Shown here in pieces: positions 5,377-29,492 of a stretch of 44,111 nucleotides of DNA. Position numbers and translations under genes: made by a program. Numbering within the stretch: position 1 is the first letter of the stretch; each line of letters opens with the position of its first letter. Below the pieces are notes generated by a model that saw nothing but the letters and a program-made list of their open reading frames with translations, searched no databases and had not been told where the DNA came from. The DNA comes from an uncultured Pseudomonadota bacterium (GTDB lineage Bacteria > Pseudomonadota > Gammaproteobacteria > Burkholderiales > Rhodocyclaceae): positions 1 to 44,111 of the forward strand of contig CAISUK010000193.1 of the NCBI GenBank assembly GCA_903888645.1. Direction: 5' to 3'.

Positions 5377-5391
5377 GGAAATCGTTTCGCT

Positions 5392-5691: not shown

Positions 5692-5720
5692 GACCTTGTC
5701 CTGAAAGGAATGACTTCAGC

Positions 5721-6071: not shown

Positions 6072-6192
6072 CTAAATCTCCTGGGTTGGATTGAAAGGAA
6101 GGCTGGGAAGCTGCATTCGGATAGCCGCTCAAAAAACGCTGTGCCCGCTTTGCCGGCATCGGCGGCTGGGGTCGCAAGTGACCAGTGCATTG

Positions 6193-9233: not shown

Positions 9234-10146
9234 GTCCAGCCTCGCTCCGAGAGGCCAGCGACGGAACGTTGATCGACAGCTGCCAACGCTCCGAATAATT
9301 TGGCGAATACTCGTTTTCTGGATCGAGTTTGCGCGATCCGCCACGCTGAGCGCAGGTTTGCCAGGAGACTATCGTTGCGTGTTCCAAATGGCAGACTTCC
9401 GTCAGCAAGAATCCGGCACGAACCTTGTCGATGGCCGAGCCATTGCGCTCGACCTCATCGATGATTGTCCGTAAGTGCCGCGTTGCTTCTCCCTGAAAAA
9501 CATCGATGACGTGCTGAATACCACCGCACAAAGCCGGCTCGCGCAGCATGTCGAGAAAGACCCGACCGATCGTCGCTACGCGCAGTGGTGATCCCGGGAC
9601 GTGGCGAAAGGCTCCCAGTTGCGAGCGTTCGTGAAATTGCACTGCCGTTTGACCGATGCGGGTCAGGTTCAATCGCGTCAGCTTCGGCAATCCGCTGGCG
9701 ATATAGTCGTCAAACCGCTCCCCGAGCTCCTTGTGCATGCGTTCCCTGGCCTGTTGACGCCATTCGCCAGTTGGGGGCACCGACATGAATGCGACGGCGG
9801 GAAATCGGTCGGTTAGCCCATGATATTCCATGGCACTCAGATGTGAGACGTAGGCGAACGGATCAAGGCTGCAGGCGACCTGCTGGGCCGTGGCATGGCC
9901 TTGGCCGAAGAGCAAATAGGCATGTACGCCGCTCTTGAGCGGCAATCGCGTCAGCAGTCCGACATCGACCAGATGATCGACGACCCCGTGATACAGGGTC
10001 TTCGCTTCTGTATTTTTCCGAGCCATCTGCAGGAACACTGTCTTGGCCAGCTCATATGGCGATACGGCAGCCAGTCCGGCTGAGCTTAGTACCTGGCTCA
10101 CCCTGCTGATTTGTCCCTGCTCGACAATTACGGTAGGCATATACAT
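9223..10146 (-). CDS. abiEi: AbiEi-family type IV TA antitoxin / transcriptional regulator
   Basis: Contains the AbiEi-typical SHLSAMEYHGLTDRFP block. Sits immediately upstream of and overlapping abiEii. ATG at 10146 or 10140. The TTG at 10173 used by the track lies inside the predicted promoter. Confidence 0.8.
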   Translation of the reverse strand: MYMPTVIVEQGQISRVSQVLSSAGLAAVSPYELAKTVFLQMARKNTEAKTLYHGVVDHLVDVGLLTRLPLKSGVHAYLLFGQGHATAQQVACSLDPFAYVSHLSAMEYHGLTDRFPAVAFMSVPPTGEWRQQARERMHKELGERFDDYIASGLPKLTRLNLTRIGQTAVQFHERSQLGAFRHVPGSPLRVATIGRVFLDMLREPALCGGIQHVIDVFQGEATRHLRTIIDEVERNGSAIDKVRAGFLLTEVCHLEHATIVSWQTCAQRGGSRKLDPENEYSPNYSERWQLSINVPSLASRSEAGHER

Positions 10147-10189
10147 TGACTGATAACGTTGTCCTAAGGACAACGTTATCAGTCAATGT
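10143..10189. repeat. Pal1: perfect 47-bp palindrome (23-nt arms, 1 central nt)
   Basis: ACATTGACTGATAACGTTGTCCT-A-AGGACAACGTTATCAGTCAATGT read directly. Overlaps the abiEi start codon region and the predicted -10. Confidence 0.95.
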
Positions 10190-14707: not shown

Positions 14708-15340
14708 CTAGGGGATATCCCGTTCTGACTCAACACTGGGGTGATGACTGGGGCCCAGCCTACGAAGATGACTCGCTGTCGTTTGCAGCGTAGTGCGAAT
14801 TGGGTAGGACGCCTGAATGCGGTGGTCCACATGAAAACGCTCAAACAGCTTGCAGAATGGACAAGGCTGACCGCGTTGAGCGACGGTGCCGACCGCGGCA
14901 ATGAACTTGCAGGCGCAATCTTGGCAGCTCAGAATGGATAACGCCGATGTGCTTGCCAGCCAGATACCTTCGATGTAGGAGACGAGGTTGAAAGCCCGGT
15001 CCAGGCTGATGCGGAAGGGTGGCAGGGTCGTAGCCTGGTAGGCGCGATAGGCAAGTATCAGCGCCTCGCCTGGTATGAGACCCTGGTCACGCAGCTGCTG
15101 GTACTTTGCACCGATGACGCAAGCGTCGATACGCATGATCAGGTTGGCCCCGTAATACCAATCGGCAGAATCCGGGGCGCGCCCACGGGGAATGCTGAGG
15201 ACATCCGGGAAGAATAGACTTTGAATCTGGCGTGGTGGGATGCCAGTGATCAGATGAATCGTCTTCAGGCGTGCGCCGAGCGCCGTCAATTTTTTTGCTT
15301 GCTGAACGGCACGGAGGTGCCGATCGCCTCGAGTCGGCAT
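14708..15340 (-). CDS. FlhC-like transcriptional activator subunit (SetC/AcaC-like)
   Basis: LTALGARL, PRGRAPDSADWY and AYRAYQ blocks align with FlhC. Four Cys arranged C-x2-C...C-x2-C (SCQDCACK...CPFCK), like the FlhC zinc site. Confidence 0.75.
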   Translation of the reverse strand: MPTRGDRHLRAVQQAKKLTALGARLKTIHLITGIPPRQIQSLFFPDVLSIPRGRAPDSADWYYGANLIMRIDACVIGAKYQQLRDQGLIPGEALILAYRAYQATTLPPFRISLDRAFNLVSYIEGIWLASTSALSILSCQDCACKFIAAVGTVAQRGQPCPFCKLFERFHVDHRIQASYPIRTTLQTTASHLRRLGPSHHPSVESERDIP

Positions 15341-16053: not shown

Positions 16054-17118
16054 TCAGGCAGCTTCGGCCAGCCCCTTCCACTCATGGGCCGCCAAATCGA
16101 TCAGCCGGCCACCCAGCGCTTCAAACTCCGTCGCGCGATCGTAATCCTCGACCTCCTGGCTGTAGTGAGTCACGGCATTGACCAACCCGTAACCTGACAG
16201 CTGGCCTTCTTCGATCAGGTGGCGCAACACGCCGGCCCGCTCGTTGTCGTTCAAGGTATAGCGTTGCGCCAGTACCTCGACCGTCTTCACCGGGTCACCC
16301 AACAGCGGGATGTTCAAGGTCTTTTGCAGCTTCTGTGCCGTCTGGCGGAAGGTTGCCTCCGACACTGCCGCCTGCACCACGTCGCGCACTTTCAGGAAAA
16401 ACGCCTGGTCATCGGCACGCAAGGTGTCTTCCTGATAGACCTGAATGGCGTCATCCGTGCCACCCAGCGCCCGACCCACGTGCGTCTTGCGCAGCGAGCG
16501 GTCGGGGGCGATCAGGCCGTTGCGGCAGATCAGCCGGAACAGCAATGGCTGCACCGACAGCGTCCCCTGACCGACCTCCGAGTTCGAGATCACGACGCCG
16601 GCCTGCACGACATCACCGGGCGCCATTTCGTATTTCAGGCGTGGCGTGATGCACTTCAGGTACATCTTCGTCTCGGTCAGTTCGACCGACTCGAAGCGGA
16701 CCTCGGGCAGTTGCTGCAGGATGGGCAGCACACTTTCGGCCAGGTCGAAATTATCCAGACGACGATAGCGGTCGGACAATACCGCGCGCACCTGACCGTC
16801 CAGAGTTCGCAGCATGCGCCGGTCATCGTCGCTTTGCAGCCAGGTGTTCACGTTGCGGTCCAGCAACACCGGTTGCTCTTCGCGCATGCGCTCAAAATAC
16901 GCATACGGAATCTTCAATTTTTCGGCCAGTTGGCGTCGGGCCAGCGGCGTGACGCCATAGCGCACCGGACTGCCGCCTTCCTCGACGACGATTTTCGTCT
17001 CGCCACCCTCGGCGGTGGTGTGGTGCACGAGTTGCGAGGGCACGATCAAGTCCTTCTTCGAATGCAGCTGGCGCTCCAGTTCCTGCGCCAGACCAACGAG
17101 AGAACGTCCAATCTTCAT
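16054..17118 (-). CDS. DUF932 domain protein
   Basis: Blocks RAVLSDRYRRLDNFDL, TKMYLKCITP and VISNSEVGQGTLSVQPLLFRLICRNG are typical of DUF932. ATG 17118 has GGAGA upstream. The N-terminal extension in the track ORF is low-complexity. Confidence 0.75.
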   Translation of the reverse strand: MKIGRSLVGLAQELERQLHSKKDLIVPSQLVHHTTAEGGETKIVVEEGGSPVRYGVTPLARRQLAEKLKIPYAYFERMREEQPVLLDRNVNTWLQSDDDRRMLRTLDGQVRAVLSDRYRRLDNFDLAESVLPILQQLPEVRFESVELTETKMYLKCITPRLKYEMAPGDVVQAGVVISNSEVGQGTLSVQPLLFRLICRNGLIAPDRSLRKTHVGRALGGTDDAIQVYQEDTLRADDQAFFLKVRDVVQAAVSEATFRQTAQKLQKTLNIPLLGDPVKTVEVLAQRYTLNDNERAGVLRHLIEEGQLSGYGLVNAVTHYSQEVEDYDRATEFEALGGRLIDLAAHEWKGLAEAA

Positions 17119-17348
17119 AGCAATCTCCAATTCAAGAATGAGCGGGCACGGCATCACCCACTCGTGGGGATGCGCATCCCCAAGGGGGTTGATAACGAGC
17201 CGGCGATGGCCGGTCCCAAATGGCGCGAATCGAATCGCGCCTGAACTCCAGGGCTGTCTTCGCGGCACCGTGCGGTGTCGCCTGGTCTGACAACTACCAG
17301 TGGTGCAAAAGAAATTTTTCGCGGTCACCGCGCCCTGCAGCGACCCTG

Positions 17349-17390
17349 AAAAAGCGGGTGGGTCCCAATCGCAGCATGGGACCGCACCCC
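17349..17390 (-). terminator. Intrinsic terminator after the primase-like gene
   Basis: Hairpin GGTCCCA/TGGGACC extended by 5 more pairs across a 1-nt bulge. Followed on the minus strand by TTTTT (17349-17353). Confidence 0.55.
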
Positions 17391-17398
17391 GAATCAAT

Positions 17399-18409
17399 TT
17401 ACGCCGCACGAGATGCCTGAGCCGGCCAACGCTGCCGCCAGACATCGGCCCAATCGCTGCCCGCGTTCTTGGGAACGAACACGCGCACCTGCCGCAGGTT
17501 CGTTTTCTTCCCTTCGCGTTTCAATCGACGCGCCAGGGCATAGGCGAAGGCCTGGCCGGTGAAATCGCCATCGGCATCGTTGTCGGCATAAATGCATACC
17601 GCGCGTACCGTTTCCGGCATCCACAATTTCTCCAGGTTGCCGGCGCTGAGGCCAGCCCAGACCGGCTTGCCGGTCGCCAGGTGTACCGCGATACCGGTCT
17701 CGATGCCTTCGCTGATCGCCAGTTCCTCGGTGGCGTCGAAGAGACGCACTGCGGCTCCGTTGATACCGGCAGAGAGCACTTTTTTTGCATCGTGGGCCGC
17801 CAGCTTGCCGCCGTCCTGAAGGTAGGTCCGGTGCAGCGTCACGGCATGCCCATCAGCGCCCTGGATGCAGGCCAGCATGGCCGGGTACTCGGCGACCTTG
17901 CGTGACTTGCCGCTGGCATCTTTCTGGTAATAGCCGAGCGCGCCATGGCAGCGCAACACCTTCGGATACGCCGGCAGTGCCAAACTCCGGCCGCTCAGGT
18001 AGCGATCCACCTCGTCGCCTGCCGTGACCGGACGGGCTTCGTTCCAGATGCGCTGCGCAAGCTTCTTCATGGGCGTGGTGGTCGGCTCGGAAGTACGACA
18101 AGTCGCTGCCACAGGCATCACGCCAAGGCAGCGCTCGACATCACGCAATGCCGTGTTGAAGTCCACCCCCATTACCGCCTGCAGCAGCTTGAAACCGCCG
18201 CCCGGGCCACATTGGCGGCAGTGATAGTTGCCCTCGCCGAACTTGTCGGTGTACTGGAAGCGATCCGACCCGCCGCAGAGCGGGCAGGGCAGGTTGCGGC
18301 GCTTGAGAATGGTTTCTGCCACACCCAACGCCGCAAGGATCTCCGTCCAGCGACCATGGGCCCGCTGCTTGACCGTCTCGATGCGTTGCGCATAGTCACG
18401 ATCCTGCAT
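17399..18409 (-). CDS. Zn-ribbon + Toprim primase-like protein
   Basis: CPLCGGSDRF...YHCRQCG zinc ribbon (primase-helicase type). Toprim motifs ISEGIETG and YADNDADGD. ATG 18409 has GGGAG upstream. 14-nt overlap with the upstream GHKL gene. Confidence 0.8.
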   Translation of the reverse strand: MQDRDYAQRIETVKQRAHGRWTEILAALGVAETILKRRNLPCPLCGGSDRFQYTDKFGEGNYHCRQCGPGGGFKLLQAVMGVDFNTALRDVERCLGVMPVAATCRTSEPTTTPMKKLAQRIWNEARPVTAGDEVDRYLSGRSLALPAYPKVLRCHGALGYYQKDASGKSRKVAEYPAMLACIQGADGHAVTLHRTYLQDGGKLAAHDAKKVLSAGINGAAVRLFDATEELAISEGIETGIAVHLATGKPVWAGLSAGNLEKLWMPETVRAVCIYADNDADGDFTGQAFAYALARRLKREGKKTNLRQVRVFVPKNAGSDWADVWRQRWPAQASRAA

Positions 18410-20030
18410 GGTGGGCTCCCAGTGCGACTGGCTGGGTTTCGGCAAACAAGGCTACCGAATGTCCCGGCGCCGAACCCACCCCAACCGTGACCTGGAAGGC
18501 CTTGCCGTGGAGCAGGGGGTATTTGCCCAGCCGTAGTTCCTGCAACAGCGAATCCAGCGTCTGCACCGGATCGACCGAACGCAGGCGACGGATCAGGTCC
18601 GCCAGCGCGTCACGGTCGGCGTTCATGTCCGACTCCAGGTACTGCTCGTTTTCATCGACGAACGAGGAAACTTGACGGACCGGTTCGCCGCTGGTTTCGC
18701 CGGCGGGAATGTACAGGACATCCCTGTGGCAGACCCCACTGTCGACGATCTCGACCACGTCACCCCCGATGCGCACCAAAACAGACTCGCACAGGATCAC
18801 GGTCGGCCACACCCAGCGTCCTTCGAACTGCAAGCGCGTTTGTTCCATCACGGCTTCGACATGCGCTGTTTCATCTTCCAGAAAGCGCACATGCCGTTGC
18901 ACCCAGTGGTCGGGATGCAGACCGATCCAGTCGAAGACCAGGTAGCCCTTGGCCCGAGCCAGCATCCAGTGCGCCGCGTTGCTGTCGTCCATCCAGTTGA
19001 GCGATACCAGCGTCACCGCGCCACTTTCAATGGCTTGGCGAGACGGCGCCACTGATACCTGCCGGACATAGTCGCTGCTGCCGCTGTCATCCTGGATCGG
19101 GTAATCGACGATCGCATCGAACAACTGTGCTGGCAGCACATCGAGATCGTTGAGCAGGTCCAACTGTCCCCAGGCCTGCATGGCCCGATAGTAGGTATCG
19201 ACGAAGTTCGCCGGGGTGAGCTGGTTCTTGGCCGCCTCCAGCGTTCGCCGCCAGCAAGCCTTCAGCTCGGCGTCGATGCGTTTTTTCTGCACATCCTCGT
19301 CAATCAGCTTGTCGCGATCCGGCAGACGCGCCATGAACTGACGCGAGTCGAGATGGACGACATTGACCCGGTCGAGTCCGTAGCCGGTCGGCTTCGTGAC
19401 GCAAAAGCCTTGCAGGAACACCATCGTGTCGTGGCTATGCAGGCCATCTTGCTGACCGGCAAGGCGGATCAAGCCGATTGGGGTAGGCATGGTGGCAAGG
19501 TGTTCGGCGGCAAAGCGTCGCGTCAGTGCTTTGCCGTTGAACCATACCTCCACCGGAAACCCCAGGCACAGGGTCTCGATGCGGTTATCCAGATCGGGTA
19601 GCTCGACACCGTGCAACTCGATCCTGGTACCGGCAACGACTTCGGTGTTGTCTTCGACAGCGAAATACGCCTTGTCCAACGCCGCCGCGGTGTCGATATC
19701 GACGCGCTGGTGGTAGGACGTGACGACGCAGCGCGTCGCCGCATAGAGGCATTTCGAGAAGCCCACGCCGAAGGGATGTTCTTCGGCACTGATCGCCGCA
19801 TTCCAGCCGGACTCGTGGAAGCTCAAGAGCTTCTGGAAGTCGTCCAGGCCGCAGCCGTCATCCTGCACCTGCAGCAAGCGGGCGGTGGCATCGTAATGGA
19901 CATCGATGCGTGCAGCACCGGCGCGGCGGGCGTTCTGCAATAGCTCGGTGACCAGCGTGAAGCGGTCGCTGAAGGCGTAGCGCTGGTTGCGCAGGGCGGC
20001 GGCTTCGTTGAGTCGAATCTGTATTCGCAT
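18396..20030 (-). CDS. GHKL-superfamily ATPase (HATPase_c-like), unknown role
   Basis: Bergerat-fold motifs ELLQNARRAGA (E/N), VQDDGCGL (DxGxG) and HPFGVGF. ~400-aa C-terminal region without recognisable motifs. ATG 20030 has GGAG upstream. Confidence 0.7.
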   Translation of the reverse strand: MRIQIRLNEAAALRNQRYAFSDRFTLVTELLQNARRAGAARIDVHYDATARLLQVQDDGCGLDDFQKLLSFHESGWNAAISAEEHPFGVGFSKCLYAATRCVVTSYHQRVDIDTAAALDKAYFAVEDNTEVVAGTRIELHGVELPDLDNRIETLCLGFPVEVWFNGKALTRRFAAEHLATMPTPIGLIRLAGQQDGLHSHDTMVFLQGFCVTKPTGYGLDRVNVVHLDSRQFMARLPDRDKLIDEDVQKKRIDAELKACWRRTLEAAKNQLTPANFVDTYYRAMQAWGQLDLLNDLDVLPAQLFDAIVDYPIQDDSGSSDYVRQVSVAPSRQAIESGAVTLVSLNWMDDSNAAHWMLARAKGYLVFDWIGLHPDHWVQRHVRFLEDETAHVEAVMEQTRLQFEGRWVWPTVILCESVLVRIGGDVVEIVDSGVCHRDVLYIPAGETSGEPVRQVSSFVDENEQYLESDMNADRDALADLIRRLRSVDPVQTLDSLLQELRLGKYPLLHGKAFQVTVGVGSAPGHSVALFAETQPVALGAHHAGS

Positions 20031-20098
20031 GACATGCTCCATGATTTTCGGCGGAACCCGAGCGCATTGGGTCGGGCCCACCTGGGGAAATGATTTGG

Positions 20099-20416
20099 TC
20101 AGCCGGGAAGGCAGACCGCTGGGGTGAACAACTGGCCAGCAGCGAGTGCTTCGCTCAGGCTGTGCCTGAGGAATGCTGGTGGCAGCAGGTGCTGGGTACT
20201 CTGGATCCGGCCCTCATGATCGAGCCGCTCGACCTTCAGGCCGATCAAGTGCCAATGCACCCGGTAGGCGAGTCGGTCTGCGCCGGCGATGACGAACATC
20301 CGTCCCGGCTGGCCCGTCAAAACTTCGCTTTCCTTGACCAGGAACTCGATCTCTTCCGGCGACTTCACCGTGATGAGCGATGGTCTTTGATTTGCAGTGC
20401 GTGCTTGGGTTTGCAT
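20099..20416 (-). CDS. Hypothetical protein (105 aa)
   Basis: ATG 20416 preceded by GAGGAGA. Sensible composition. Operon-packed, 11 nt after the upstream ORF stop. Confidence 0.5.
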   Translation of the reverse strand: MQTQARTANQRPSLITVKSPEEIEFLVKESEVLTGQPGRMFVIAGADRLAYRVHWHLIGLKVERLDHEGRIQSTQHLLPPAFLRHSLSEALAAGQLFTPAVCLPG

Positions 20417-20426
20417 GGCTGTCTCC

Positions 20427-20687
20427 TCAAAGCACCGACGACAGGCAGGGGCTGCCGTCTTCCGGCGCGCACCCATTGATGCAGGGCGCGCTTCGAGCGA
20501 AAGGAAGGTCGCCGCTCGTCGCACGGGGCTCGCGAATTGCCGATGCCGGTGGCGCTTGGCAGTCGTCGCGTGTTTGCTCCTGCCGGATCTTGTCCAGCAA
20601 TATCGCGTCTTGATAGTCGATGCTTCCGGCAATGCCGTAGCCGACAAATATCGCCAGCAGGCAGCAGACATCCTTGAAAGTGATCAT
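20427..20687 (-). CDS. Hypothetical small membrane protein (86 aa)
   Basis: ATG 20687 preceded by AAGGAA. N-terminal hydrophobic helix CCLLAIFVGYGIAGSI. Confidence 0.4.
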   Translation of the reverse strand: MITFKDVCCLLAIFVGYGIAGSIDYQDAILLDKIRQEQTRDDCQAPPASAIREPRATSGDLPFARSAPCINGCAPEDGSPCLSSVL

Positions 20688-20752
20688 GATGATTTCCTTG
20701 GTTAGCTTGAGCTTCCGCGTTGCCGTGGAAGCTCGATGAATGGGGAACGGGG

Positions 20753-21316
20753 TCAGGCGAACAGGTCGCCATGCGCGGACACCCGCTTGATCTGCTCGTT
20801 GATCCACTGGGGGTTCTTGATCAGTCGAGCCTCGATCCACTCGGGGCGATGGACGACGGCATCGCGTACCCATTCCGGGTATCGCTTGATCGTGGCAGCG
20901 AGCCATGTCCTGACGCCATCGCGAATGTGGTCGCGCATCTCCTCGGCGTCGACTAATCCGCAGTAGGCGATCGGCGACAGAGGACTGCAGCCGACGACCC
21001 GCAGGCAACTCACGAAGGAGAAGGGTTTCCCTTCCTTATCGCGTTCTGTGAATACCCAGCGCAGCGTATCGAACTTTTCTTCGAGGGGTGTCGCCGGCTC
21101 TGCCAGTTGGCTGATTTCGTGAAGCAGGCGCCAATGCAGGAAGACGATGTCTTCCTCGCTCCATTCGATGGGTGAGTCGTCGTCGAGCATGGTTTCAGAA
21201 GTGCTGCAATCAGGGACGGCTGCCGTCCGCGGGTGCAACATCGCGGCGAAGGATGGCGCTGAGGGTCCTGCTGGTGCAGCGCTGAAATCACTGGGGAAAA
21301 TCGTCGGGTTGAACAT
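20753..21316 (-). CDS. Hypothetical acidic protein (187 aa)
   Basis: ATG 21316 preceded by GGAGA. Protein-like composition with an acidic stretch (MLDDDSPIEWSEEDIVF). First gene after a 525-bp divergent intergenic region. Confidence 0.55.
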   Translation of the reverse strand: MFNPTIFPSDFSAAPAGPSAPSFAAMLHPRTAAVPDCSTSETMLDDDSPIEWSEEDIVFLHWRLLHEISQLAEPATPLEEKFDTLRWVFTERDKEGKPFSFVSCLRVVGCSPLSPIAYCGLVDAEEMRDHIRDGVRTWLAATIKRYPEWVRDAVVHRPEWIEARLIKNPQWINEQIKRVSAHGDLFA

Positions 21317-21853
21317 CGTTGTCTCCAAGACAGGCAGGAGGCAACGCGCACCATGACTGGAGGCGTAAGCCCCCAGGGGGTATGGAACGACCGGCGGATA
21401 CAGATCGCGGTCGGCTTCGGGAAAAACTCCAGGACTGGCTAATTCGGCTGTCGTAAAACGCCGGGATCGGGTTGCCAGCGACCGATCGAGTCAAACTTTC
21501 GGGGGAGGGGTGTCAGGGTAAAGTCAGGGACGCCTCACCTCTGCCTCGAAAGCTTACCTCGATGGCATGGATGCGACAGGCACGCGAATTGGTTGCCGAT
21601 ACAAACGTCGCGCGCAGTTCCACTGAAATCGTACAGCGCGAAATCTGAGACTCCAAGGCTTGCCATCGTTGCATGCAGGGCTAGCTACTGCATGGCATAA
21701 CGATAGCGGTCGAAGTTTTCCGGGTCAATAGCGATTGAACGGTTCAATCGCGCTCAATGCCGAAATCCCCCTCAGGCGGCGGTCATTTCGGGTGGCGATT
21801 GCATGCGCTGCGTCGGAAGATTGCTCTGACCGGATTATTTCGAGGAGCAATGC

Positions 21854-22594
21854 ATGTCGGAAACACAAAACGTCAAGGTGGATCAGGGTGGCGTCAATGC
21901 CCGAATTCTTGCCAAGGAAGCCAAGGCCGACTTCCGGCGGGTCGAGGCAGCCAGCCTCAAGATGCCTACCCGCTTTACCAGCGCCGAGGGCAAGCGCTTC
22001 TTTGCACGCTTGTTCAATACCCTGCAACTCAACACGCACTTCATTTCGGTGATCGCCCGCACACGCCTGGACCACGTCGATATCGCCAAGATTGAGACCA
22101 CCATCCGAACCCAGATGGACGCAGTCACCGAGAACCTCAACAAGGCGATCGACTGTGCCGAGGCGCTCTTCAAGGCCCATGGCATTAACAGCACCGCAAC
22201 CTATGACACGGTACCGCTGGACGTGGACGTCCATGTGCTGTCCTCGATCGGTCGCCGCTTTCTTGAGGTCTTGGGGAAACTTGACCAGGTGATGCCTTTG
22301 CTGCAAACACTCGAGATTCATGAAGTAATCACCACCCAGGCCGTGGATATCCAGCGGGCGAGCCTGAAACGGCAGGTGCGCGACGTGGCCAACGGGGCGC
22401 GCAACTTTGCAACCGGGCTGCGACGAAGGATGAATATGATGATTGCAACGGATGGTGTGGAATCCCTCACCGCAACCGATAAAGAGACAACGGTCCAGAG
22501 TGGCACCGATAGGTTCGATGAAGTCGCATCGGATGACTCTGCATTGGCGATCGGATCGGACTTGCAGGACTCCGAAACCGCGACATCCAAATAG
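21854..22594 (+). CDS. ICE protein, DUF1845 / PFL_4669-like (TIGR03761-type)
   Basis: GAGGAG RBS. Blocks ATYDTVPLDVDVHVLSSIGRRFLEVLGKLDQVMPLLQTLEIHEVIT and GLRRRMN match my recollection of DUF1845 proteins. The opposite-strand 326-aa ORF has non-protein-like composition. Confidence 0.55.
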   Translation: MSETQNVKVDQGGVNARILAKEAKADFRRVEAASLKMPTRFTSAEGKRFFARLFNTLQLNTHFISVIARTRLDHVDIAKIETTIRTQMDAVTENLNKAIDCAEALFKAHGINSTATYDTVPLDVDVHVLSSIGRRFLEVLGKLDQVMPLLQTLEIHEVITTQAVDIQRASLKRQVRDVANGARNFATGLRRRMNMMIATDGVESLTATDKETTVQSGTDRFDEVASDDSALAIGSDLQDSETATSK

Positions 22595-23065
22595 CATTTC
22601 AGAGTCCGGTTTATTTGGGTTCCACTCTAGCAAGGAAATGCCTCTCCCAATCGCCCGCGTATTCCCTCCCTTACGGTAGGTGTATCGCCAGCGGACTGGT
22701 GGCAACTGCCCGAAGCCAATAAGCTACATCCCGGTGAGCACTGCATCGATCATTGACTGCAGTGTTCATCTCCGCCACTCTGATGGCGGCGTCGCAGTCG
22801 ATACCTGCCCCATTTCCGGCGATTGGCTTGCCCGAGCATTGCGGGGTCAAGCACAGATCGGCCGATCAAGCCCGATACGGACGCCTATGACAGCAAGGCG
22901 TCGTGATCCTCTTCGTTATCTATTCATTCATGCCACGTGATGGGGACGCTCGTGGCGTGCCGACGAGATTTGCGTTCCATATCGGCTCGCGCCCTTCTGA
23001 CCAAGCGCGGCCGCGAAAGAGCAGGTCATATCCCTTTCCGCCGTCAGCCGAGCCGAGGACCGATC

Positions 23066-23329
23066 ATGCCCAGCATATGCACCAGTTCACTCATAACGAC
23101 ATTGTCATCTCAATTAATTTCTACTCGCCCTTCAATTCAAACGCTCCCCGAAACTGGCTTTCTTCGCCAGCCGCAGGTGTTGGCGTTTGTGCCAATCTCC
23201 AAATCGACACTCTGGCGACGCATCCAGGCGCGCACCTTTCCCGAGCCCGTCAAGCTCTCGGAGCGGGTGACGGTCTGGCGCGCCGAAGATATCCGCCGCT
23301 GGATTGCGAAGCAGGGCCAGACGACCTGA
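23066..23329 (+). CDS. alpA: AlpA-family regulator / excisionase-like protein
   Basis: C-terminal HTH block FLRQPQVLAFVPISKSTLWRRIQARTFPEPVKLSERVTVWRAEDIRRWI is typical of Phage_AlpA. ATG 23066 has GAGGA upstream. Confidence 0.8.
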   Translation: MPSICTSSLITTLSSQLISTRPSIQTLPETGFLRQPQVLAFVPISKSTLWRRIQARTFPEPVKLSERVTVWRAEDIRRWIAKQGQTT

Positions 23330-23365
23330 TTAAGTAACTAACAGCGGGTCCTGTGAATGTAGGTC

Positions 23366-23408
23366 ACCGTGCGCAGCCAGTCAGAGACTGAGCGCACGGT
23401 TTCCTCCT
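23366..23408 (+). terminator. Hairpin / weak terminator after alpA
   Basis: ACCGTGCGC...GCGCACGGT 9-bp stem extended by CAGTC/GACTG, followed by TTCCTCC. Confidence 0.4.
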
Positions 23409-23566
23409 GGCTGATTCCATGTCTGGGTCGTTCCCCGGCAAGCACATGACATTCCCCTGATAACGAAAGCCCCCGCATTTCAAGCCGATTTCGCCTGGCG
23501 ATTGAGGCGTCGAGGCTCGAAGATTCGTACCGGTGACACTCCAAGAGATTTAGGGAGAGATCGGTA

Positions 23567-24508
23567 ATGCAAGACAATCAGGAGGCTGTTCGCTACCGCG
23601 AAAACGCGATGCAATCGGTGCAGATGTTGCGCGATGTGCTTGACGGTGATACCTACGAAGTCGTGGCGCTACGCTTTGGCGTCACGCGCACGGCGGTCGA
23701 GCGACGCATCAAGTCTATCGCCGTCCAGCTCACCCAGATCGTGGGCGTCGAAGGGCTCACCGAGGAGGGTGCCGCATTTGTCCGTCGTCTGCGCCTGCAT
23801 CGAGAAGCCATATTACATGCGCTGGAAAGCTTCGAACCGCAGCTGCCGGTTGGACTTCGGGCGGCGCGCGTGATGTCCCAACCGGAGGTTAAACAGGGGG
23901 CCGTTCGCATCAAAGGGCGTACCAGTCGCACCGCGCATGACCTGGCGCTCTACTACTTGCTGTTCGCAACCGGTTTGCGTCCGCTCGAAATTGCCCGCCT
24001 CGAAGTGCGTGACTATCTGCATGCCGATGGCAGCGTTCGGCGGGAGTCGGAACTACGCGCCGATACGGCCATCAACCGCAAGTTGCGGCCACTCTACTTT
24101 AGCAGCAGCAAACTGGACGATATGCTCACAGACTACTTCAGCGAACAGCTGCAGAACCATCATGGCCTGAGTACGCAGGGGCATTACCGCGGACTTGAGC
24201 CAAGCAGCCGCCTGTTTCTGTCCCCGGTTGGTGAGGCCTACCCGATAGAGCCCAACGGCGATTCGGGACAAAACCGATTTGTGTGCCGAAAGCTCCTGGA
24301 TATCTACCGCAAGTTGTTTCGTTATGCCGAAATCAAGGGTATGGGTTCGCAGTCGGCGCGCCTGACCCTCATATCGCGGATGTATGAACGTGGTGCTGAT
24401 GAAGATCAGGTCGGCACGATTCTGGGCATAGCCGAGCGCAGCGCCGTGCGTCAACTGTTGCCTCGGCCCAAGCCAACGCTGGCGGAATTACTTGACGAAT
24501 TGGTCTGA
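23567..24508 (+). CDS. Tyrosine-recombinase-fold protein with N-terminal HTH; catalytic residues apparently missing
   Basis: Box I-like ATGLRPLEIARLEVRDY is present. At the expected HxxR position the sequence is QSAR, the LGH position reads LGI, and there is no Tyr in the last ~40 residues (ILGIAERSAVRQLLPRPKPTLAELLDELV). The N-terminus YEVVALRFGVTRTAVERRIKSI looks like a sigma-r4/LuxR-type HTH. Confidence 0.6.
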   Translation: MQDNQEAVRYRENAMQSVQMLRDVLDGDTYEVVALRFGVTRTAVERRIKSIAVQLTQIVGVEGLTEEGAAFVRRLRLHREAILHALESFEPQLPVGLRAARVMSQPEVKQGAVRIKGRTSRTAHDLALYYLLFATGLRPLEIARLEVRDYLHADGSVRRESELRADTAINRKLRPLYFSSSKLDDMLTDYFSEQLQNHHGLSTQGHYRGLEPSSRLFLSPVGEAYPIEPNGDSGQNRFVCRKLLDIYRKLFRYAEIKGMGSQSARLTLISRMYERGADEDQVGTILGIAERSAVRQLLPRPKPTLAELLDELV

Positions 24509-24516
24509 GAAGGCAC

Positions 24517-25725
24517 ATGGAAAGCCAGCGTCTTGCCATCAAGGGTCGGGTCATTGAGATGACAGATTCATTGTTGCAGGAAAGGCTGGCCGAAGTGCAC
24601 GACACCCCCGAGCGGCCACGCTGTCTCTGCGTTCCGGGCGGGGTGGAGATGTATGTGGCGCGGCATCGCCAGTTCGTGGTCAAGCGTATGCCGGAGAGTG
24701 GTCATACCCACCACCCAAGCTGTCCCTCGTATGCGCCAGAGGTGCAGCAATCCGGACTCGGCGAACTTCTCGGCGAAGCCGTGCTGGAGACAGAGCCTGG
24801 GCGGGTCGAGCTGCGCGTGGATTTTCCGTGGACGCGGAGGCGCGGGCGCGGCGTGGTGCTTGGCGAACCCCAGGACGTGGCAGATGTCGCGGTACCGCAG
24901 CGGCGCATGTCACTGCGGGCCTTGTTGCATTTCCTGTTCGAACGTGCCGGCTTCAATCGCTGGAGTCCGGCCATGGCAGGCAAGCGCAACCAGGGTGTGC
25001 TGCGCAAGTATCTGTTGGAAGCCGCCGAAGATGTCACGGTTAAGGATTTGCCACTGGGTGAACGCCTTTACGTTCCTGAAACCTTCAGCGAAAGTGGCAA
25101 GGCCGAAGCGGCGCAAAGGCGGCGAGAAAAGCTGGCAGTCCTGCGTCCTCGGGAGGGACAGTGCCCGCTGGCCGTGGTGATCGGCGAATTCAAATCGAGC
25201 GAGGCGACGCTGCATGGGCAACGGATTTGGATCCGGCATATGCCGGATGCTCCGCTCTTGATCGCCACCGGCAGTTGGAACCGGATCGAGCGGGTTTTCG
25301 GGCCCTTGTTCGAAGCGCGAGACGCCGATTCCAGGCATGCGGTCCGGCTGATCCTGATCGCACTGATCCGCGCACGTCGCGAATACACTTACGAGATCGA
25401 CGCAGCCAGCATGATGCTGACCAGCGCGCAGTGGATTCCGGTCGAGGGTGTGCACGAATTGCCAATGATCGACGCCTTGATCGCCCAGGAGCGCCGCTTC
25501 ATCAAGCCGATGCGCTATGACGCCAGGAGCGCAGCCGCCTTTCCGAATGCCTTGCTGCTCGATGCCGGGTCGCTGCCGATACCGCTTCATGTAATCAGCA
25601 CTTACATGAATCCAGAGGAGCGCTCAATGAAGGAGAAGGCAATATCGACGGGTAACCGGGAGGCCTGGTTGTGGCTGACCGATCAATCGATGCCGGCTTT
25701 TCCAACGATTGTTGGACGAGGCTGA
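24517..25725 (+). CDS. DUF1173-like protein (Cys/His-rich N-terminus)
   Basis: 402 aa. N-terminal RPRCLCVPGG...HTHHPSCPSY cluster. C-terminal ERRFIKPMRYD...FPNALLLD...IPLHVIS block. Starts 8 nt after the recombinase-like gene stop. Confidence 0.55.
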   Translation: MESQRLAIKGRVIEMTDSLLQERLAEVHDTPERPRCLCVPGGVEMYVARHRQFVVKRMPESGHTHHPSCPSYAPEVQQSGLGELLGEAVLETEPGRVELRVDFPWTRRRGRGVVLGEPQDVADVAVPQRRMSLRALLHFLFERAGFNRWSPAMAGKRNQGVLRKYLLEAAEDVTVKDLPLGERLYVPETFSESGKAEAAQRRREKLAVLRPREGQCPLAVVIGEFKSSEATLHGQRIWIRHMPDAPLLIATGSWNRIERVFGPLFEARDADSRHAVRLILIALIRARREYTYEIDAASMMLTSAQWIPVEGVHELPMIDALIAQERRFIKPMRYDARSAAAFPNALLLDAGSLPIPLHVISTYMNPEERSMKEKAISTGNREAWLWLTDQSMPAFPTIVGRG

Positions 25726-25779
25726 TGTAGCCGATGCAAACCACTACCGGAAACTAATCGTCGGGAGGACGCCGCGCTT

Positions 25780-25809
25780 TTGAATGAGACTGCACATAGT
25801 GGGTAAAAT
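25780..25809 (+). promoter_or_regulatory. Candidate sigma70 promoter of the Phd-like gene
   Basis: -35 TTGAAT (25780-25785), 18-nt spacer, -10 TAAAAT (25804-25809). AGGAGG RBS 6 nt before ATG 25848. Confidence 0.55.
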
Positions 25810-25847
25810 AGGTAATATGAGCATCTTGGGTAAGCTAGGAGGCTTTC

Positions 25848-26276
25848 ATGGCAGACGCACTCCCCTCCCGTTCAGATGCTTTGGAACGACTCGCGCGCGA
25901 CTTGCCGTCCTTTACTGCCACCAAGCTGGTGGCCGGGATGCAGACGGTGACCAGTGCGGTGATGGCCAAAGGCGCCGTCGTCATCACTCGCCATGACCAG
26001 CCGACCATGGTGTTGGCGTCGGTTGACCGCTACCTGGCACTGGAGCAGGCGGCTGAGCCAAATCTTGACGCGCTGACCCGCCAGTTTGACGACATGTTCG
26101 CTCGGATGCAGGGTACATCGGCAGTACAAGGCATGGCCGACGCTTTCGCCATGACCACGCGCGCACTGGGTGAGGCCGCCATGAAGGCGGCTCATGGCAA
26201 ACCCACGGCGAAGTGGTGCGTCACGAGTTGCCCGAGTCCGCACGAGTTTGCGCTCATGATGGCGCCCCCTGACTAA
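25848..26276 (+). CDS. Phd/YefM-family antitoxin-like protein (solitary)
   Basis: Phd-type core KGAVVITRHDQPTMVLASVDRYLAL. 142 aa with a C-terminal extension. No toxin ORF adjacent. Confidence 0.65.
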   Translation: MADALPSRSDALERLARDLPSFTATKLVAGMQTVTSAVMAKGAVVITRHDQPTMVLASVDRYLALEQAAEPNLDALTRQFDDMFARMQGTSAVQGMADAFAMTTRALGEAAMKAAHGKPTAKWCVTSCPSPHEFALMMAPPD

Positions 26277-26463
26277 GGTCGGTGTCGAGATCAGGTAAGG
26301 CGCTTACGCTGAAATGCGGCAAGCCGTGGCGAATGGCCGGAACGAAGCTGCCCTTGTCAGGAAATTATGAGTTATCAGCGGTAAAAGGCTGCTTACGGTT
26401 TGACCATCCGTTTCAACGGCCTCTATATCTACATTTTAACCGGACTGCATGCCGTAAGGGGTT

Positions 26464-27375
26464 CTATATTTTGGCAAAGAAGCGCCGCAAGTGGTGGGAG
26501 ACTTCCATCGGCGCCTCCTCGGGCAGAAAGTGGCCGCAGTCGATTCCAGCCCCGGTCGCGAATTGTGCCTTCTCGCGCCATACCGCGAGCACGTCATAGT
26601 TGCGGCCGACAAATCCATTAGCTCCCCATAGTGCGAGGAGTGGGCAGCTTATCCGGTGGACTTCGTCTTCCCGATCATGCTCCAGGTCGATGCCGGCCGC
26701 CGCGCGGTAGTCGTCGCAACTGGCGCGGATGGCTTCCGGATCGGCAAAGCAGCGCACGTATTCGGCGAGAGCCTGCGGCGCAAAAGCCTTTTCGTTGCCA
26801 TGGCTCCAGCGAGACAGGCAACCGCGCAGCCAGGCTTCCGGGTCGGCACCGATCATGCGCTCGGGCAGCGGTGGCGCCTGAATCAGGAAGAACCAGTGAA
26901 AATATGCGGTGGCCAACGCTTGGTCAGTCAGTGCCAGTGTCGTCGACGTCGGCGCTATGTCCATCACACAGGCAGCAGTAACGCGTGCTGCGTGATCGAG
27001 ACAGAGGCGATGCACAACTCTCGCGCCACGGTCGTGGCCAGCAACATAAAACGTCTCATGGCCAAGAACCGTCATGAGATCCGCAATGTCCTGCGCCATT
27101 GCTCGCTTCGATTGGTTCGCGGCACGGGGAACCGAACGGGGCTTCCCGGAATCGCCGTAGCCTCGCAAGTCAGGAATGACGAGCGAGAAATTGTCAGCCA
27201 GCAGCGGCGCTACACGATGCCAGATGACGTGAGTCTGGGGATAGCCGTGCAGCAAAACAAGTGTTGGCTTGCCGGCATTTTCGCGGGCCAGAAAATGGAT
27301 GATCGTGCCATTCACCGGAATTTGCCGCGGGACAAAGGTCGAGTCGAACAGGGTCACAGTAGGCGTTGGGTACAC
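26464..27375 (-). CDS. Alpha/beta hydrolase, haloacetate dehalogenase H-1 / epoxide hydrolase-like
   Basis: [32 protein letters not shown] and nucleophile elbow [11 protein letters not shown] start. Confidence 0.8.
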
Positions 27376-27505
27376 AATTTAGCGAGACGGGCTGACCCTA
27401 GTTTAGGGCATCCCAAACTAAACGCGCAATTCAGCAATCCGAAGGTGCGCTGGAGAAACTGCGATTAAGCAACGGCTACGCCGTTAACAACAGTATTGTT
27501 CAACA

Positions 27506-27958
27506 TTAATCAGAGTTGATTACAAGTCGGTTTTGGATGTTGCTATAAGCCATCGCCACAACGTCTTTTAGACGATGTCGTACATGATTGAGCGCTGCAA
27601 TGTTGTCTGAGAGGCCATTGTCTAAAACTCCAATAATGACATCAGTCGTACTGTCAATTAGACCGTTGAAGTGCTCAAGGGAGATTTTGAGATAGAGGTG
27701 ATTGACTATGGCCTCTTGGAGCATGATCTTCGTGACGATTGGATTCTGAATGATGGCCATCAAGCTGTAAATGGTCTGCGTCACCATCTCGCCTTCCATC
27801 TCTTTGGCTTTGTTTAAGCTCAGTTCGGTAAATGTTGCTCTAACCTGCGGATACTTAGCGTAGTAATTTTCCATTACAGGTTTAGTGATATCTCCGAGGT
27901 TCTCGGCAGCGAGACCAAGTGCTTCTTCTATCAGATTAATGTCTTGGGTAGGATTCAC
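27506..27958 (-). CDS. Globin-like protein
   Basis: 150 aa, AT-rich gene. N-terminal ENLGDITKPVMENYYAKYPQVRATF resembles the bacterial globin-family A/B helices. GTG start with AAGGAAA upstream. Confidence 0.5.
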   Translation of the reverse strand: MNPTQDINLIEEALGLAAENLGDITKPVMENYYAKYPQVRATFTELSLNKAKEMEGEMVTQTIYSLMAIIQNPIVTKIMLQEAIVNHLYLKISLEHFNGLIDSTTDVIIGVLDNGLSDNIAALNHVRHRLKDVVAMAYSNIQNRLVINSD

Positions 27959-27987
27959 GATATATTTTCCTTTTGTGCTGCCAATTA

Positions 27988-27995
27988 AAAAAACT
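27988..27995. repeat. Target-site duplication AAAAAACT (left copy)
   Basis: Identical 8-mer abuts both ends of the ISL3 element. Confidence 0.85.
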
Positions 27996-29492
27996 GGCTC
28001 TTTTGAATTTTGAGTGGGTTAAGCGGCATGGGGGTTGATCTTGCTGAAGTCGAGTTTGCCGGCGAGGAGGAATACGACGGTGCGGATCGTGGAGAAATTG
28101 CCATAGCCACGTGCCTTGCGCTTGGCGGCCTGGAACAGGCCGTTGATGGCTTCGAGGAAGCCGTTGGTCTGGCGCGTTTGGGACCATGTGACGATGCCAT
28201 CGAGATGGTTACGGATCATCTTCGCCACCTCCTTCATCGGTTCGACTTTAGAGCGCATCACATTGGTGGTCCATTGCGTGAGCATGTCGCGCACGACATT
28301 GACCTGCTTACGCTCCAGAATCTCGCGCAGCTGCTCCTTGTAGAGCCAGGCGCGGGCCGTGCGTTTGGTGGTCACTTGCGCGATGAGCGCATCCAGATCG
28401 GCACGGGCATCCGGCGCGAGACTAGCGCGATCCCGCAGGAGCTTCCAACGCAAGCCCTTCAAGCTCGGATCGGTCTTCTGCTCGATACGCCGGGTCTTGT
28501 CGACGGCGGTGCTCGCGTGGGCGATGACATGGAATTTGTCGAAGGTAATCCGGGCGTTGGGCAGGTGCTTGGTGACGCCCTTGATGAAGGCCGGCGACAT
28601 GTCGATGGAAATGGACTCGACGGTCTGCGGATCACCGCCGTGGGCAGTGAAGTCGGCGGCGAATGCCTTGATCGTGTCAGCATCCCGCCCTTCGGTGACG
28701 AACAGCACCCGGCGCAGGTCGGCATCGGCTACCAAAGTAATGTAGTCATGCCCGCGGGCCTTGGATGTCTCGTCGGCCGCCAAGCGTTTGACCGCCGAGA
28801 AGTCCGCCTGGTCCAGTCCCAGCGCGACGTAACGCTTGCAGATCGCCACGACCTGATGCCAAGACAAGCCCACCAGCCGGGACACCGCGGCGAAGGTCAT
28901 TTCCCGGCACATCGCCATGATCAGCGCCTCGAAGAGCAGGGTAAAGCCAGCGAGCCGTCCGGCCCAATCCGGTTCGACCTGCCGAATGCCGCCATCGGGC
29001 AAGCGCACACGCGGGACGCGAACTTCCAGATGGCACTCATGCTGAAAGAAGTTCAAGTGCCGGTAGCGCTTGATCACGGTGTCGTGCGCTGGATGCACGC
29101 CCTCGATGCCCGAGACGGCAAAGCGGCTGCCGGCGATGAAGTCGACGGCAATGGCCAAGGTCTTCTTCGCGACGTCGAACTCGACACCGTTGATGTACCA
29201 CGGCGAGGTAATGCCCAGGGCGGCTTCGAACAACTTGGCGGTCATGTCGCGGTCACTCAAGTTTCACAGGGGGCGCGCATCTTACCCACGCGCTCGGTTT
29301 GGCAATCGCCGCGTTGTCTCCATGGCTGGATGAACAACCCCGCTGCATCCAGCCACGGGACAGCGTATCGGCCGATTCCAGGCGTCAAGGGTGCGCTTCG
29401 CCGGGCTGCGATAACCCCGCAGCCCGCCCTTGACCCCCGGCCTCGGCCTACCAGCGTCGTCACGCATTACCCACTCAAAATTCAAAAGAGGC
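27996..29492 (-). mobile_element. ISL3-family insertion sequence, 1497 bp, apparently intact
   Basis: 24-bp terminal inverted repeats GGCTCTTTTGAATTTTGAGTGGGT / GCCTCTTTTGAATTTTGAGTGGGT (1 mismatch). Single transposase ORF and an 8-bp direct repeat of the target. Confidence 0.9.
28019..29260 (-). CDS. ISL3-family transposase
   Basis: 413 aa. Blocks GITSPWYINGVEFD, RYRHLNFFQHECHLEVRVPRVRLPDG, ISIDMSPAFIKG and NGFLEAINGLFQAAKRKARGY are characteristic of ISL3 transposases. Confidence 0.9.
   Translation of the reverse strand: MSDRDMTAKLFEAALGITSPWYINGVEFDVAKKTLAIAVDFIAGSRFAVSGIEGVHPAHDTVIKRYRHLNFFQHECHLEVRVPRVRLPDGGIRQVEPDWAGRLAGFTLLFEALIMAMCREMTFAAVSRLVGLSWHQVVAICKRYVALGLDQADFSAVKRLAADETSKARGHDYITLVADADLRRVLFVTEGRDADTIKAFAADFTAHGGDPQTVESISIDMSPAFIKGVTKHLPNARITFDKFHVIAHASTAVDKTRRIEQKTDPSLKGLRWKLLRDRASLAPDARADLDALIAQVTTKRTARAWLYKEQLREILERKQVNVVRDMLTQWTTNVMRSKVEPMKEVAKMIRNHLDGIVTWSQTRQTNGFLEAINGLFQAAKRKARGYGNFSTIRTVVFLLAGKLDFSKINPHAA

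Follow-up and report, generated by a model that had tools for sequence, protein, structure and literature searches.

A tyrosine-recombinase-fold protein lacking its nucleophile is paired with a DUF1173 protein on proteobacterial conjugative elements

A protein that keeps the fold of a tyrosine recombinase and has lost the catalytic tyrosine raises the question of what it may still do for the mobile element that carries it, and what it may have to do with the protein encoded directly behind it. The question arises on contig CAISUK010000193.1 (assembly GCA_903888645.1), a stretch of 44,111 nucleotides (nt) from an uncultured bacterium of the Rhodocyclaceae, which was analysed at its full length and is called the window here. 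As an earlier note made from the DNA letters alone had described, two open reading frames (ORFs) lie 8 nt apart on its + strand, and we refer to them as orfA and orfB. Judged from sequence comparisons, they form an uncharacterised yet clearly functional two-gene module, whose role we infer from context. The parts of the pair are as follows.

orfA, 23567 to 24508, + strand: gene for a 313-amino-acid (aa) tyrosine-recombinase-fold protein without nucleophile (a pseudo-recombinase), recognised by ORF, Pfam, AlphaFold/Foldseek and the ratio of nonsynonymous to synonymous substitution rates (dN/dS).
N-terminal helical domain of orfA, 23567 to 23836, + strand: about residues 1-90, with a helix-turn-helix-like (HTH-like) signature, in the place of the core-binding domain of recombinases.
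Catalytic-domain-like region of orfA, 23864 to 24505, + strand: about residues 100-313, from the Pfam match at 120-294 and the alignment to XerD.
Spacer between orfA and orfB, 24509 to 24516, + strand: 8 nt, with a Shine-Dalgarno-like GAGAAGG overlapping the orfA stop codon.
orfB, 24517 to 25725, + strand: gene for a 402-aa DUF1173 protein, with PF06666 at E=2.9e-95 and an AlphaFold predicted local distance difference test (pLDDT) of 94.
Zinc-binding motif of orfB, 24622 to 24723, + strand: C36-x-C38 ... H65-x3-C69, in invariant columns (PMC3045609).
Beta-rich middle domain of orfB, 25159 to 25431, + strand: about residues 215-305, possibly similar to an oligonucleotide/oligosaccharide-binding (OB) fold, which is a lead and not a result.
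C-terminal alpha/beta region of orfB, 25450 to 25686, + strand: about residues 312-390, a PD-(D/E)XK-like remnant with RRFxKPxRYD ... LLLD349 ... PLHV.

The catalytic positions of OrfA were located by aligning it to XerD of E. coli with hhalign (probability just 5%) and with MAFFT, relying on the mutual agreement of the two and on motif spacing. The XerD residues R148, K172, H244, R247, H270 and Y279, which we take as the reference positions, fall opposite R138, K172, Q262, R265, I288 and L297 of OrfA in both alignments, each of them weak alone. R138 (Arg-I) lies in the stretch ATGLRPLEIARLEV and in Box I, ATGLRPLE; R265 lies in QSAR, and I288 belongs to LGI, all three motifs being conserved. 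Among 120 family representatives, the Arg-I and Arg-II columns hold R in all 120, and the Lys column holds K in 106 and R in 14. At His-I, we found Q in 103, L in 12 and R in 5; at His-III, I in 119 and S in 1; and at the tyrosine position, L in 80, Q in 29, R in 9, H in 1, M in 1 and Y in none. A tyrosine beyond residue 274 is present in only one of the 120, as a stray at the S292 position, and, in a second sample of 79 distinct homologues obtained by translating genomic loci, none has one at the nucleophile position or beyond residue 274. With one stray tyrosine in 199 homologues and no intact Tyr/His set at the R-K-H-R-H-Y positions in either sample, what had been read by hand from this one protein, namely QSAR for HxxR, LGI for LGH and no tyrosine in the C-terminal ~40 residues, proves to be a property of the family. 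The nucleophile of known tyrosine recombinases is located C-terminal to the LGH motif, and the conclusion that the tyrosine is missing is therefore independent of alignment details. OrfA fails the PF00589 catalytic set R-K-H-R-H/W-Y, of which Arg-I, Lys and Arg-II remain, and, with the nucleophile and both histidines gone, standard strand cleavage and exchange by this protein are predicted to be impossible. A search for recombination sites around the pair gave no conserved inverted or junction repeats, only chance-level matches, and copies of its junction sequences elsewhere in the window were also at chance level.

In distant plasmid relatives of OrfA (Piscinibacter, Janthinobacterium and 220-aa Pseudomonas/Shewanella forms), Arg-I is replaced by K or T. 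The 220-aa homologues, which we found on plasmids of Pseudomonas, Shewanella, Aeromonas and Burkholderia, consist of the catalytic domain alone, without the tyrosine and with T or K at Arg-I (L095 and L096, 4914-5576). DUF1173 is absent beside them, they are labelled integrases, and on the Pseudomonas plasmids they sit amid orphan methylases and ArdR.

The recombinase fold itself had already been proposed, and the comparisons bear it out. Against Pfam Phage_integrase (PF00589), OrfA scores 27.1 bits over residues 120-294 (E=4.3e-6), a value exactly equal to the gathering cut-off. Its AlphaFold model, built from 21 family members and with a mean pLDDT of 84, retrieved only tyrosine recombinases among solved structures in Foldseek; XerA (5hxy) was the best match at E=1e-7, followed by IntI, Tn1549 Int, XerH and Cre (probability 1.0, E from 1e-7 to 1e-4). 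The TM-scores against recombinase structures are around 0.45, as expected because the domain orientation differs from that of the DNA-bound crystal forms. A sequence search against PDB chains found nothing, and the family profile gave one weak match in the PDB, to a LysR-type HTH (E=0.3), so the family appears to be strongly diverged. In PHROGs, the matches were to generic integrases and nothing more specific, and named homologues are labelled "integrase" or "site-specific integrase" in their sources. The N-terminal part, modelled as helices at residues 4-25, 30-37, 41-59, 68-77 and 79-87, matches HTH_23, HTH_28 and HTH_Tnp_4 of Pfam at residues 19-51, with those to HTH_23 and HTH_28 at 19-49 and all below threshold, and contains a helix, RTAVERRIK, that is invariant in the family.

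Both ORFs can be taken as genuine genes rather than chance ORFs in GC-rich DNA, since they have hundreds of homologues and since their median pairwise dN/dS of 0.125 (orfA) and 0.138 (orfB) indicates purifying selection on both. The relatives of orfA make up 763 clusters at 90% identity and those of orfB at least 1,068, and an exhaustive search found 1,622 DUF1173 proteins among 50%-identity representatives. An NCBIfam search added nothing to the Pfam assignments of the two genes. The Shine-Dalgarno-like run over the orfA stop codon, together with the short spacer, suggests that the pair is probably translationally coupled; a promoter and terminator scan gave no signal exceeding the shuffled background. 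A megablast search of positions 20000-27000 against PLSDB returned zero matches.

Whether the two genes belong together was then a matter of comparing loci. A scan with the DUF1173 alignment over one genome per species gave 354 confirmed loci, of which the closest 80, with 62-80% identity, were analysed; DUF1173 loci at 37-45% identity lie outside this sample. In 71 of the 76 informative loci, orfA stands directly upstream of orfB with gaps of 6-107 nt, the modes being 7 and 29 nt (65 related loci). Genes are inserted between the two in three of the 76, namely a Usp-MarR gene (L078, L082) and a gene for a 1,664-aa methylase-helicase (L060), and orfA is missing in two, one of which (L079) is probably cut by the contig end. 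In PLSDB, an orfA homologue adjoins DUF1173 in every one of the four plasmids whose DUF1173 protein is at least 45% identical (Piscinibacter, two Janthinobacterium, Aquincola); on that of Piscinibacter, there is a 4-nt overlap between the two genes and a giant helicase gene lies beside them. By annotation, a recombinase-like gene adjoins DUF1173 in none of seven plasmid loci whose identity is 37% or lower. In the reverse direction, DUF1173 followed all four of the looked-up orfA homologues that had enough downstream sequence. The co-occurrence of the two families, on which the proposal of a pair depended, is thus found for this DUF1173 subfamily, and on these comparisons the pairing with orfA is confined to it.

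The two genes also share their history. The identities of OrfA and OrfB to the window copies correlate (r=0.85), and nucleotide homology among loci begins at orfA or about 110 nt before it and always stops at the orfB stop codon, while the upstream non-coding DNA is unconserved across differing contexts of the pair, which was seen in other surroundings in Ferribacterium, Piscinibacter and Janthinobacterium. By this comparison of loci, orfA and orfB are shown to be one evolutionary unit, with both genes under purifying selection, and the pair is a module of beta- and gammaproteobacterial conjugative elements, both chromosomal integrative and conjugative elements (ICEs) and some plasmids. In a Janthinobacterium plasmid, an annotated tyrosine-type recombinase/integrase gene lies divergently 370 nt upstream of the dead one, near rep and parAB (L090 5543-6607, - strand). 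In the papers on DUF1173 that we found, the pairing with OrfA is not described, and a literature search for recombinases lacking the catalytic tyrosine led to the work on SEs, as strand-biased circularizing integrative elements are called, and GInts alone.

The identity of OrfB is more straightforward. What had been called DUF1173-like is a full-length member of the family, with 319.8 bits (cut-off 25) over profile positions 2-384 of 386. When 50 DUF1173 representatives with 27-63% identity were compared, no columns were invariant except C36, C38, P59, H65 and C69, which include the whole Cys/His cluster pointed out beforehand, and E188, E224, K240, R326, F328, L347, D349, W384 and W386 are among the nearly invariant residues. 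The cluster corresponds to the zinc motif CxC...Hx3-5C described for DUF1173 (PMC3045609), and the C-terminal block, in which a nuclease-like core without its acidic residues had been suspected, is the region published as a remote PD-(D/E)XK relative without the active-site signature (PMC3045609). The secondary structure of this region fits the PD-(D/E)XK core alpha-beta-beta-beta-alpha-beta, and there is a single weak match to VRR-NUC (probability 0.75, E around 0.1). After D349, the next strand is PLHV, and (D/E)xK is not kept across the family; with the conserved D...(D/E)xK signature missing, we rejected an active PD-(D/E)XK nuclease.

The AlphaFold model of OrfB (pLDDT 94, pTM 0.91) has long beta hairpins in its middle domain. 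With Foldseek, neither PDB nor BFVD yielded a match at E<=0.001, and there was no PDB nuclease among the top matches; the best ones, all sub-threshold (E from 4e-3 to 0.1), are OB-fold proteins, namely RPA32, Stn1, PolD DP1, LEF-3 and a phage single-stranded DNA-binding protein. Foldseek gave its output without aligned residues, and we would assign these matches to the middle domain of the model. Sequence searches of OrfB against PDB chains and PHROGs found nothing, and neither OrfA nor OrfB was matched in PADLOC at E<=0.1.

What the pair may do is best approached through DUF1173 on other elements. By tblastn, the family is present on 2,904 of 72,556 PLSDB plasmids (about 4%), 2,433 of which are typed as conjugative. 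On IncHI1 and IncHI1B/FIB plasmids and on an IncF multireplicon plasmid, it adjoins genes for a thermonuclease, Dcm, PLD, H-NS and PsiA, and on IncHI and IncF plasmids it is preceded by Dcm and a small ORF. In plasmids of Acinetobacter and Alicycliphilus, it is preceded at a distance of 15 nt by a zeta-toxin-family gene, which is, judging by this arrangement, a second and independent tight partner of DUF1173; the loci are on MOBF/MPF_F plasmids of A. baumannii and on Alicycliphilus pALIDE201 (L092 1474-3837; L116 3315-6197), and plasmids of Acidovorax and Comamonas also give DUF1173 matches. On a Ti-type Ancylobacter plasmid, DUF1173 comes fourth after traC-traD-traG, with a 4-nt overlap with traG (L118 2561-6194), beside the relaxase gene traA, and on Agrobacterium and Sinorhizobium plasmids it is found near genes for a methyltransferase-helicase or a strawberry-notch giant protein, DUF932, antirestriction and ParB-like proteins. 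Giant genes of this kind also accompany the pair, beside it in the Piscinibacter plasmid and, with methylase and helicase domains, between orfA and orfB in L060. Methylase-helicase dyads, ArdC-type proteins and ParB-like domains have been described as early-phase effectors acting on the transferred DNA (PMC5512222). The context of DUF1173 thus points towards a role in conjugative DNA processing or early establishment more than in excision control, and it is mainly on these neighbours in other elements that our preference for such a role is based.

The position of the pair within its own element was examined as well. The window belongs to a conjugative element, with genes for TraV, DsbC, TraB/TrbI, TraK, a coupling protein and a TraI_2 (MOBH-type) relaxase. 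The transfer backbone occupies the minus strand from 1 to 21.3 kb, together with genes for an FlhC-like activator, DUF932 and a Toprim primase. On the + strand, the order is then a weakly AcaB/PFL_4669-like gene, alpA, orfA and orfB, and these are followed by an alpha/beta hydrolase gene, an ISL3 transposase gene and catabolic genes up to the window end, which include a TetR regulator, P450, FMO, SDR, CoA-transferase and Rieske oxygenase. The two context genes upstream of the pair are listed here.

AcaB / PFL_4669-like gene, 21854 to 22594, + strand: upstream of alpA; PF08900 at E=0.0017 and TIGR03761 at E=0.027, both below cut-offs.
alpA, 23066 to 23329, + strand: 87 aa from the ATG at 23066; Pfam Phage_AlpA at E=5e-10.

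In the window, the pair stands between the transfer backbone and the inserted catabolic cargo, and the earlier note had placed it at the edge of an ICE. This placement was not supported: in the window, no tRNA, no att-like repeat and no integrase or active recombinase gene was found among the scanned ORFs, and the backbone continues past orfB in 29 of the 67 loci with enough sequence. In these 29, orfB is followed by a Gp3-like gene, usually at a distance of 150-900 nt, and then by SbcD-like and SMC-like genes; the pair is therefore taken to be internal to a MOBH/F-type backbone and flanked by cargo insertion hot spots. Metagenomic contigs repeat the order FlhC, DUF932, primase, HATPase, 251-aa gene, AlpA, 313-aa gene and DUF1173, with different cargo after it, and the AcaB-like gene is conserved in related loci at 68-92% identity. 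The link with alpA, which had also been proposed, stands only in part: 49 of the 74 orfA-bearing loci have alpA upstream on the same strand, but it is not obligatory, being absent from the retrieved DNA in 22 (13 with at least 3 kb of upstream sequence and 9 with less) and downstream on the opposite strand in three. These three are L036, L085 and L086, where alpA and the AcaB-like gene are both downstream and opposite. When contigs were instead seeded with the AcaB-like gene, the pair was within the retrieved flank in six of nine informative ones, and one of the other three has a type III restriction-modification system after the AcaB-like gene.

Several further observations concern the element and its relatives. 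The Gp3-like gene belongs to PF18897 ("recombination directionality factor-like"), the SbcD-like gene has no Pfam match, and the SMC/SbcC-like gene encodes 825 aa; these genes, located for example at L087 7446-10024 and L115 9983-15282, are all absent from the window, where cargo stands instead. In L115, three consecutive Phage_integrase genes of 416, 321 and 336 aa, resembling a recombinase-in-trio element, lie directly upstream of the pair (3093-6308), so the upstream side is an insertion hot spot as well, and further upstream there are Mu-transposase-like and IstB_IS21-like genes, resembling an IS21-type element. The FlhC-like, DUF932, Zn-ribbon/Toprim primase and HATPase_c_3 block (14708-15340, 16054-18445 and 18396-20081, all on the - strand) keeps its order in related contigs. 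Inside the transfer backbone, with an OmpA-like gene on one side and the genes for DUF4400 and the coupling protein on the other, lies a type IV toxin-antitoxin/abortive-infection pair, AbiEi (9223-10173, - strand) and AbiEii (8367-9344, - strand). After orfB, an ORF of 142 aa (25848-26276, + strand) contains a weak Phd/YefM-like stretch (E around 1e-3, below the cut-off), has no recognisable toxin partner and is unconserved in related loci. The GC content falls to 0.49 at 27-28 kb, where an ORF of 150 aa (27506-27958, - strand) without a family match adjoins the ISL3-family transposase gene (28019-29260, - strand), and the region 27001-29260 is probably a separate insertion in the cargo. The element resembles MOBH/F-type systems of the SXT/IncC type, yet has Betaproteobacteria-like hosts. 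The "phn island" of Delftia is reported to carry a P4-type integrase gene, Tra genes and an FlhC gene (PMC9960961), and by analogy its type offers a possible name for this ICE family.

The explanation that we tentatively favour, at somewhat less than even chances, is a non-catalytic DNA-binding module for conjugative DNA processing or early establishment. OrfA would bind DNA in a sequence-specific manner through the recombinase clamp, the phosphate pocket formed by Arg, Lys and Arg, and the N-terminal HTH-like domain. OrfB, with its zinc ribbon, helical domain, OB-like barrel and degenerate nuclease fold, would bind single-stranded or branched DNA and leave it uncut. Together, they may build a non-catalytic nucleoprotein complex on the DNA of their own element, with OrfA providing the address, and this complex may protect, hold or hand over incoming or excised DNA during transfer or establishment; integration catalysis or direction seems a less likely role. 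In other element lineages, DUF1173 could do the same job alone or with other partners. Besides the neighbours of DUF1173 elsewhere, this explanation is supported by the DUF932 and Toprim primase genes that share the backbone block of the pair in the window and by the surroundings of the short dead homologues on Pseudomonas plasmids, and the weak, sub-threshold OB-fold similarity of OrfB is compatible with single-strand binding. Several points weigh against it, however: the structural matches of OrfB are all below significance; DUF1173/PF06666 is absent from the supplementary tables of a study of leading regions (PMC11541004); the surroundings of the pair gave no conserved candidate for a binding site; the pair was not in the retrieved flank of three of the nine AcaB-like-seeded backbones and may thus be dispensable; and in most ICE loci the pair comes directly behind alpA and the AcaB-like gene, a position that would fit regulation equally well.

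Regulation is an alternative that we consider unlikely. OrfA would be an HTH transcription factor in a cascade with the AcaB-like, AlpA and FlhDC-like regulators, and OrfB a co-regulator or sensor, so that the pair would control excision or transfer competence. The HTH-like N-terminus of OrfA, the FlhC-like activator in the same backbone and the 49 of 74 loci in which the pair directly follows the AcaB-like gene and alpA on the same strand agree with such a role. Nevertheless, in 22 loci the pair occurs without alpA or the AcaB-like gene (with at least 3 kb of upstream DNA in 13), in three it is opposite in strand to them, its plasmid copies adjoin rep/par or helicase genes, and the non-coding DNA upstream differs across its contexts; elsewhere, moreover, DUF1173 is tied to the DNA transfer and replication (Dtr) operon and to establishment-type genes and not to regulators. 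A role in conflicts, whether anti-defence, exclusion of rival elements or addiction, is rather unlikely in our view. OrfA could poison or decoy recombinases, or DUF1173 could neutralise host defences with a lineage-variable partner, which would agree with its tightly spaced, lineage-specific upstream partners (the zeta-toxin-family gene at 15 nt; Dcm plus the small ORF) and with the antirestriction genes, orphan methylases, toxin-antitoxin systems and restriction genes among its neighbours. Still, neither protein has a PADLOC match or resembles known anti-defence families, and this role overlaps with the establishment role favoured above, from which sequence alone separates it poorly.

Much less credence is given to a cryptic but active DNA-rearrangement system, in which OrfB would cleave and OrfA would recognise the site and bring about synapsis, creating cargo hot spots or moving the cassette. 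Homology breaks exactly at the cassette edges, variable cargo is found upstream, downstream and, in three loci, between the genes, the pair is opposite in strand to alpA in three, the OrfA subfamily keeps Arg-I, Lys and Arg-II, and DUF1173 has nearly invariant residues in E188, E224, K240 and D349. However, cargo hot spots between genes are a normal feature of ICE backbones, as in those of the SXT/R391 type; terminal or junction repeats were not found; Arg-I is changed to K or T in the plasmid relatives of OrfA; and DUF1173 has no conserved (D/E)xK (alignment; PMC3045609). Less credible still is a split active site, in which the Arg-Lys-Arg pocket of OrfA would be completed in trans by a nucleophile or a metal-bound water from OrfB, the candidates being E188, E224, K240, D349 or the Cys/His cluster; if true, conjugative elements would encode a site-specific DNA-processing enzyme of a new kind, which could explain the cargo hot spots around the cassette. 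As for a decaying integrase pseudogene that stands beside DUF1173 by chance, three of the six catalytic residues are indeed gone, but orfA is under purifying selection, with its frame intact at 313-330 aa, hundreds of homologues, many invariant residues and synteny kept across genera; we consider this reading ruled out by the selection and conservation data.

The pair matters beyond this element. DUF1173 is a widespread plasmid family without a known function, with a confidently predicted architecture and no significant structural match in PDB or BFVD, and it is carried, among others, by IncHI plasmids, by an IncF multireplicon plasmid and by Acinetobacter baumannii plasmids from clinical isolates. 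A partner such as OrfA, which looks sequence-specific, offers an experimental route to this function. Furthermore, the label "site-specific integrase" on the OrfA family is a systematic mis-annotation, which can mislead programs that set the boundaries of ICEs or prophages by integrase calls.

Compared with the canonical recombinases of PF00589 (XerC/D, XerA, XerH, IntI, Cre), OrfA shares the two-domain fold, Arg-I within Box I (ATGLRxxE), the Lys of the beta-hairpin, Arg-II and XerD-like spacing. It differs from them in that, across its family, His-I has become Q, L or R, His/Trp-III has become I and the tyrosine mostly L, Q or R, and its N-terminus gives HTH-type signals and no Phage_int_SAM signal. 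The partner-less plasmid DUF1173 proteins (IncHI1, IncHI1B/FIB, one IncF multireplicon plasmid, Acinetobacter MOBF/MPF_F, Burkholderia, Rhizobiaceae Ti-type) belong to the same full-length family as OrfB and have the same zinc motif and conjugative link, but they are only 25-37% identical to it and have the zeta-toxin family, Dcm, traG or thermonuclease genes as neighbours. Early-phase proteins of the ArdC type (PMC5512222) may be similar in their probable mode of action only, as proteins that bind DNA without catalysis, have their genes near those for DUF932, ParB-like and methylase-helicase proteins and are proposed to act on the transferred DNA.

The nearest precedent is found in Tfp of SEs and GinC of GInts, which have a tyrosine-recombinase fold without the RHRY motif (PMC10214605). 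Like OrfA, they are recombinase-fold proteins without the catalytic tyrosine on mobile elements of Gamma- and Betaproteobacteria, and they are thought to bind DNA without processing it and have an accessory protein of unknown fold as operon partner (PMC10214605). Nevertheless, they exceed 550 aa with the recombinase-like part in the centre, whereas OrfA has 313 aa and keeps both Arg residues; their operons hold two active recombinases (intA/intB, ginA/ginB), whereas the window showed no gene for an active recombinase; and they have TnpC-like coiled-coil proteins, Srap and GinD, as partners, whereas that of OrfA is DUF1173. Size, operon and partner, set against the description in PMC10214605, led us to reject membership of OrfA in the Tfp/GinC group. 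Beside Tfp and GinC, OrfA would instead represent a second class of non-catalytic proteins with the tyrosine-recombinase fold, a compact one that, by analogy, at most works alike.

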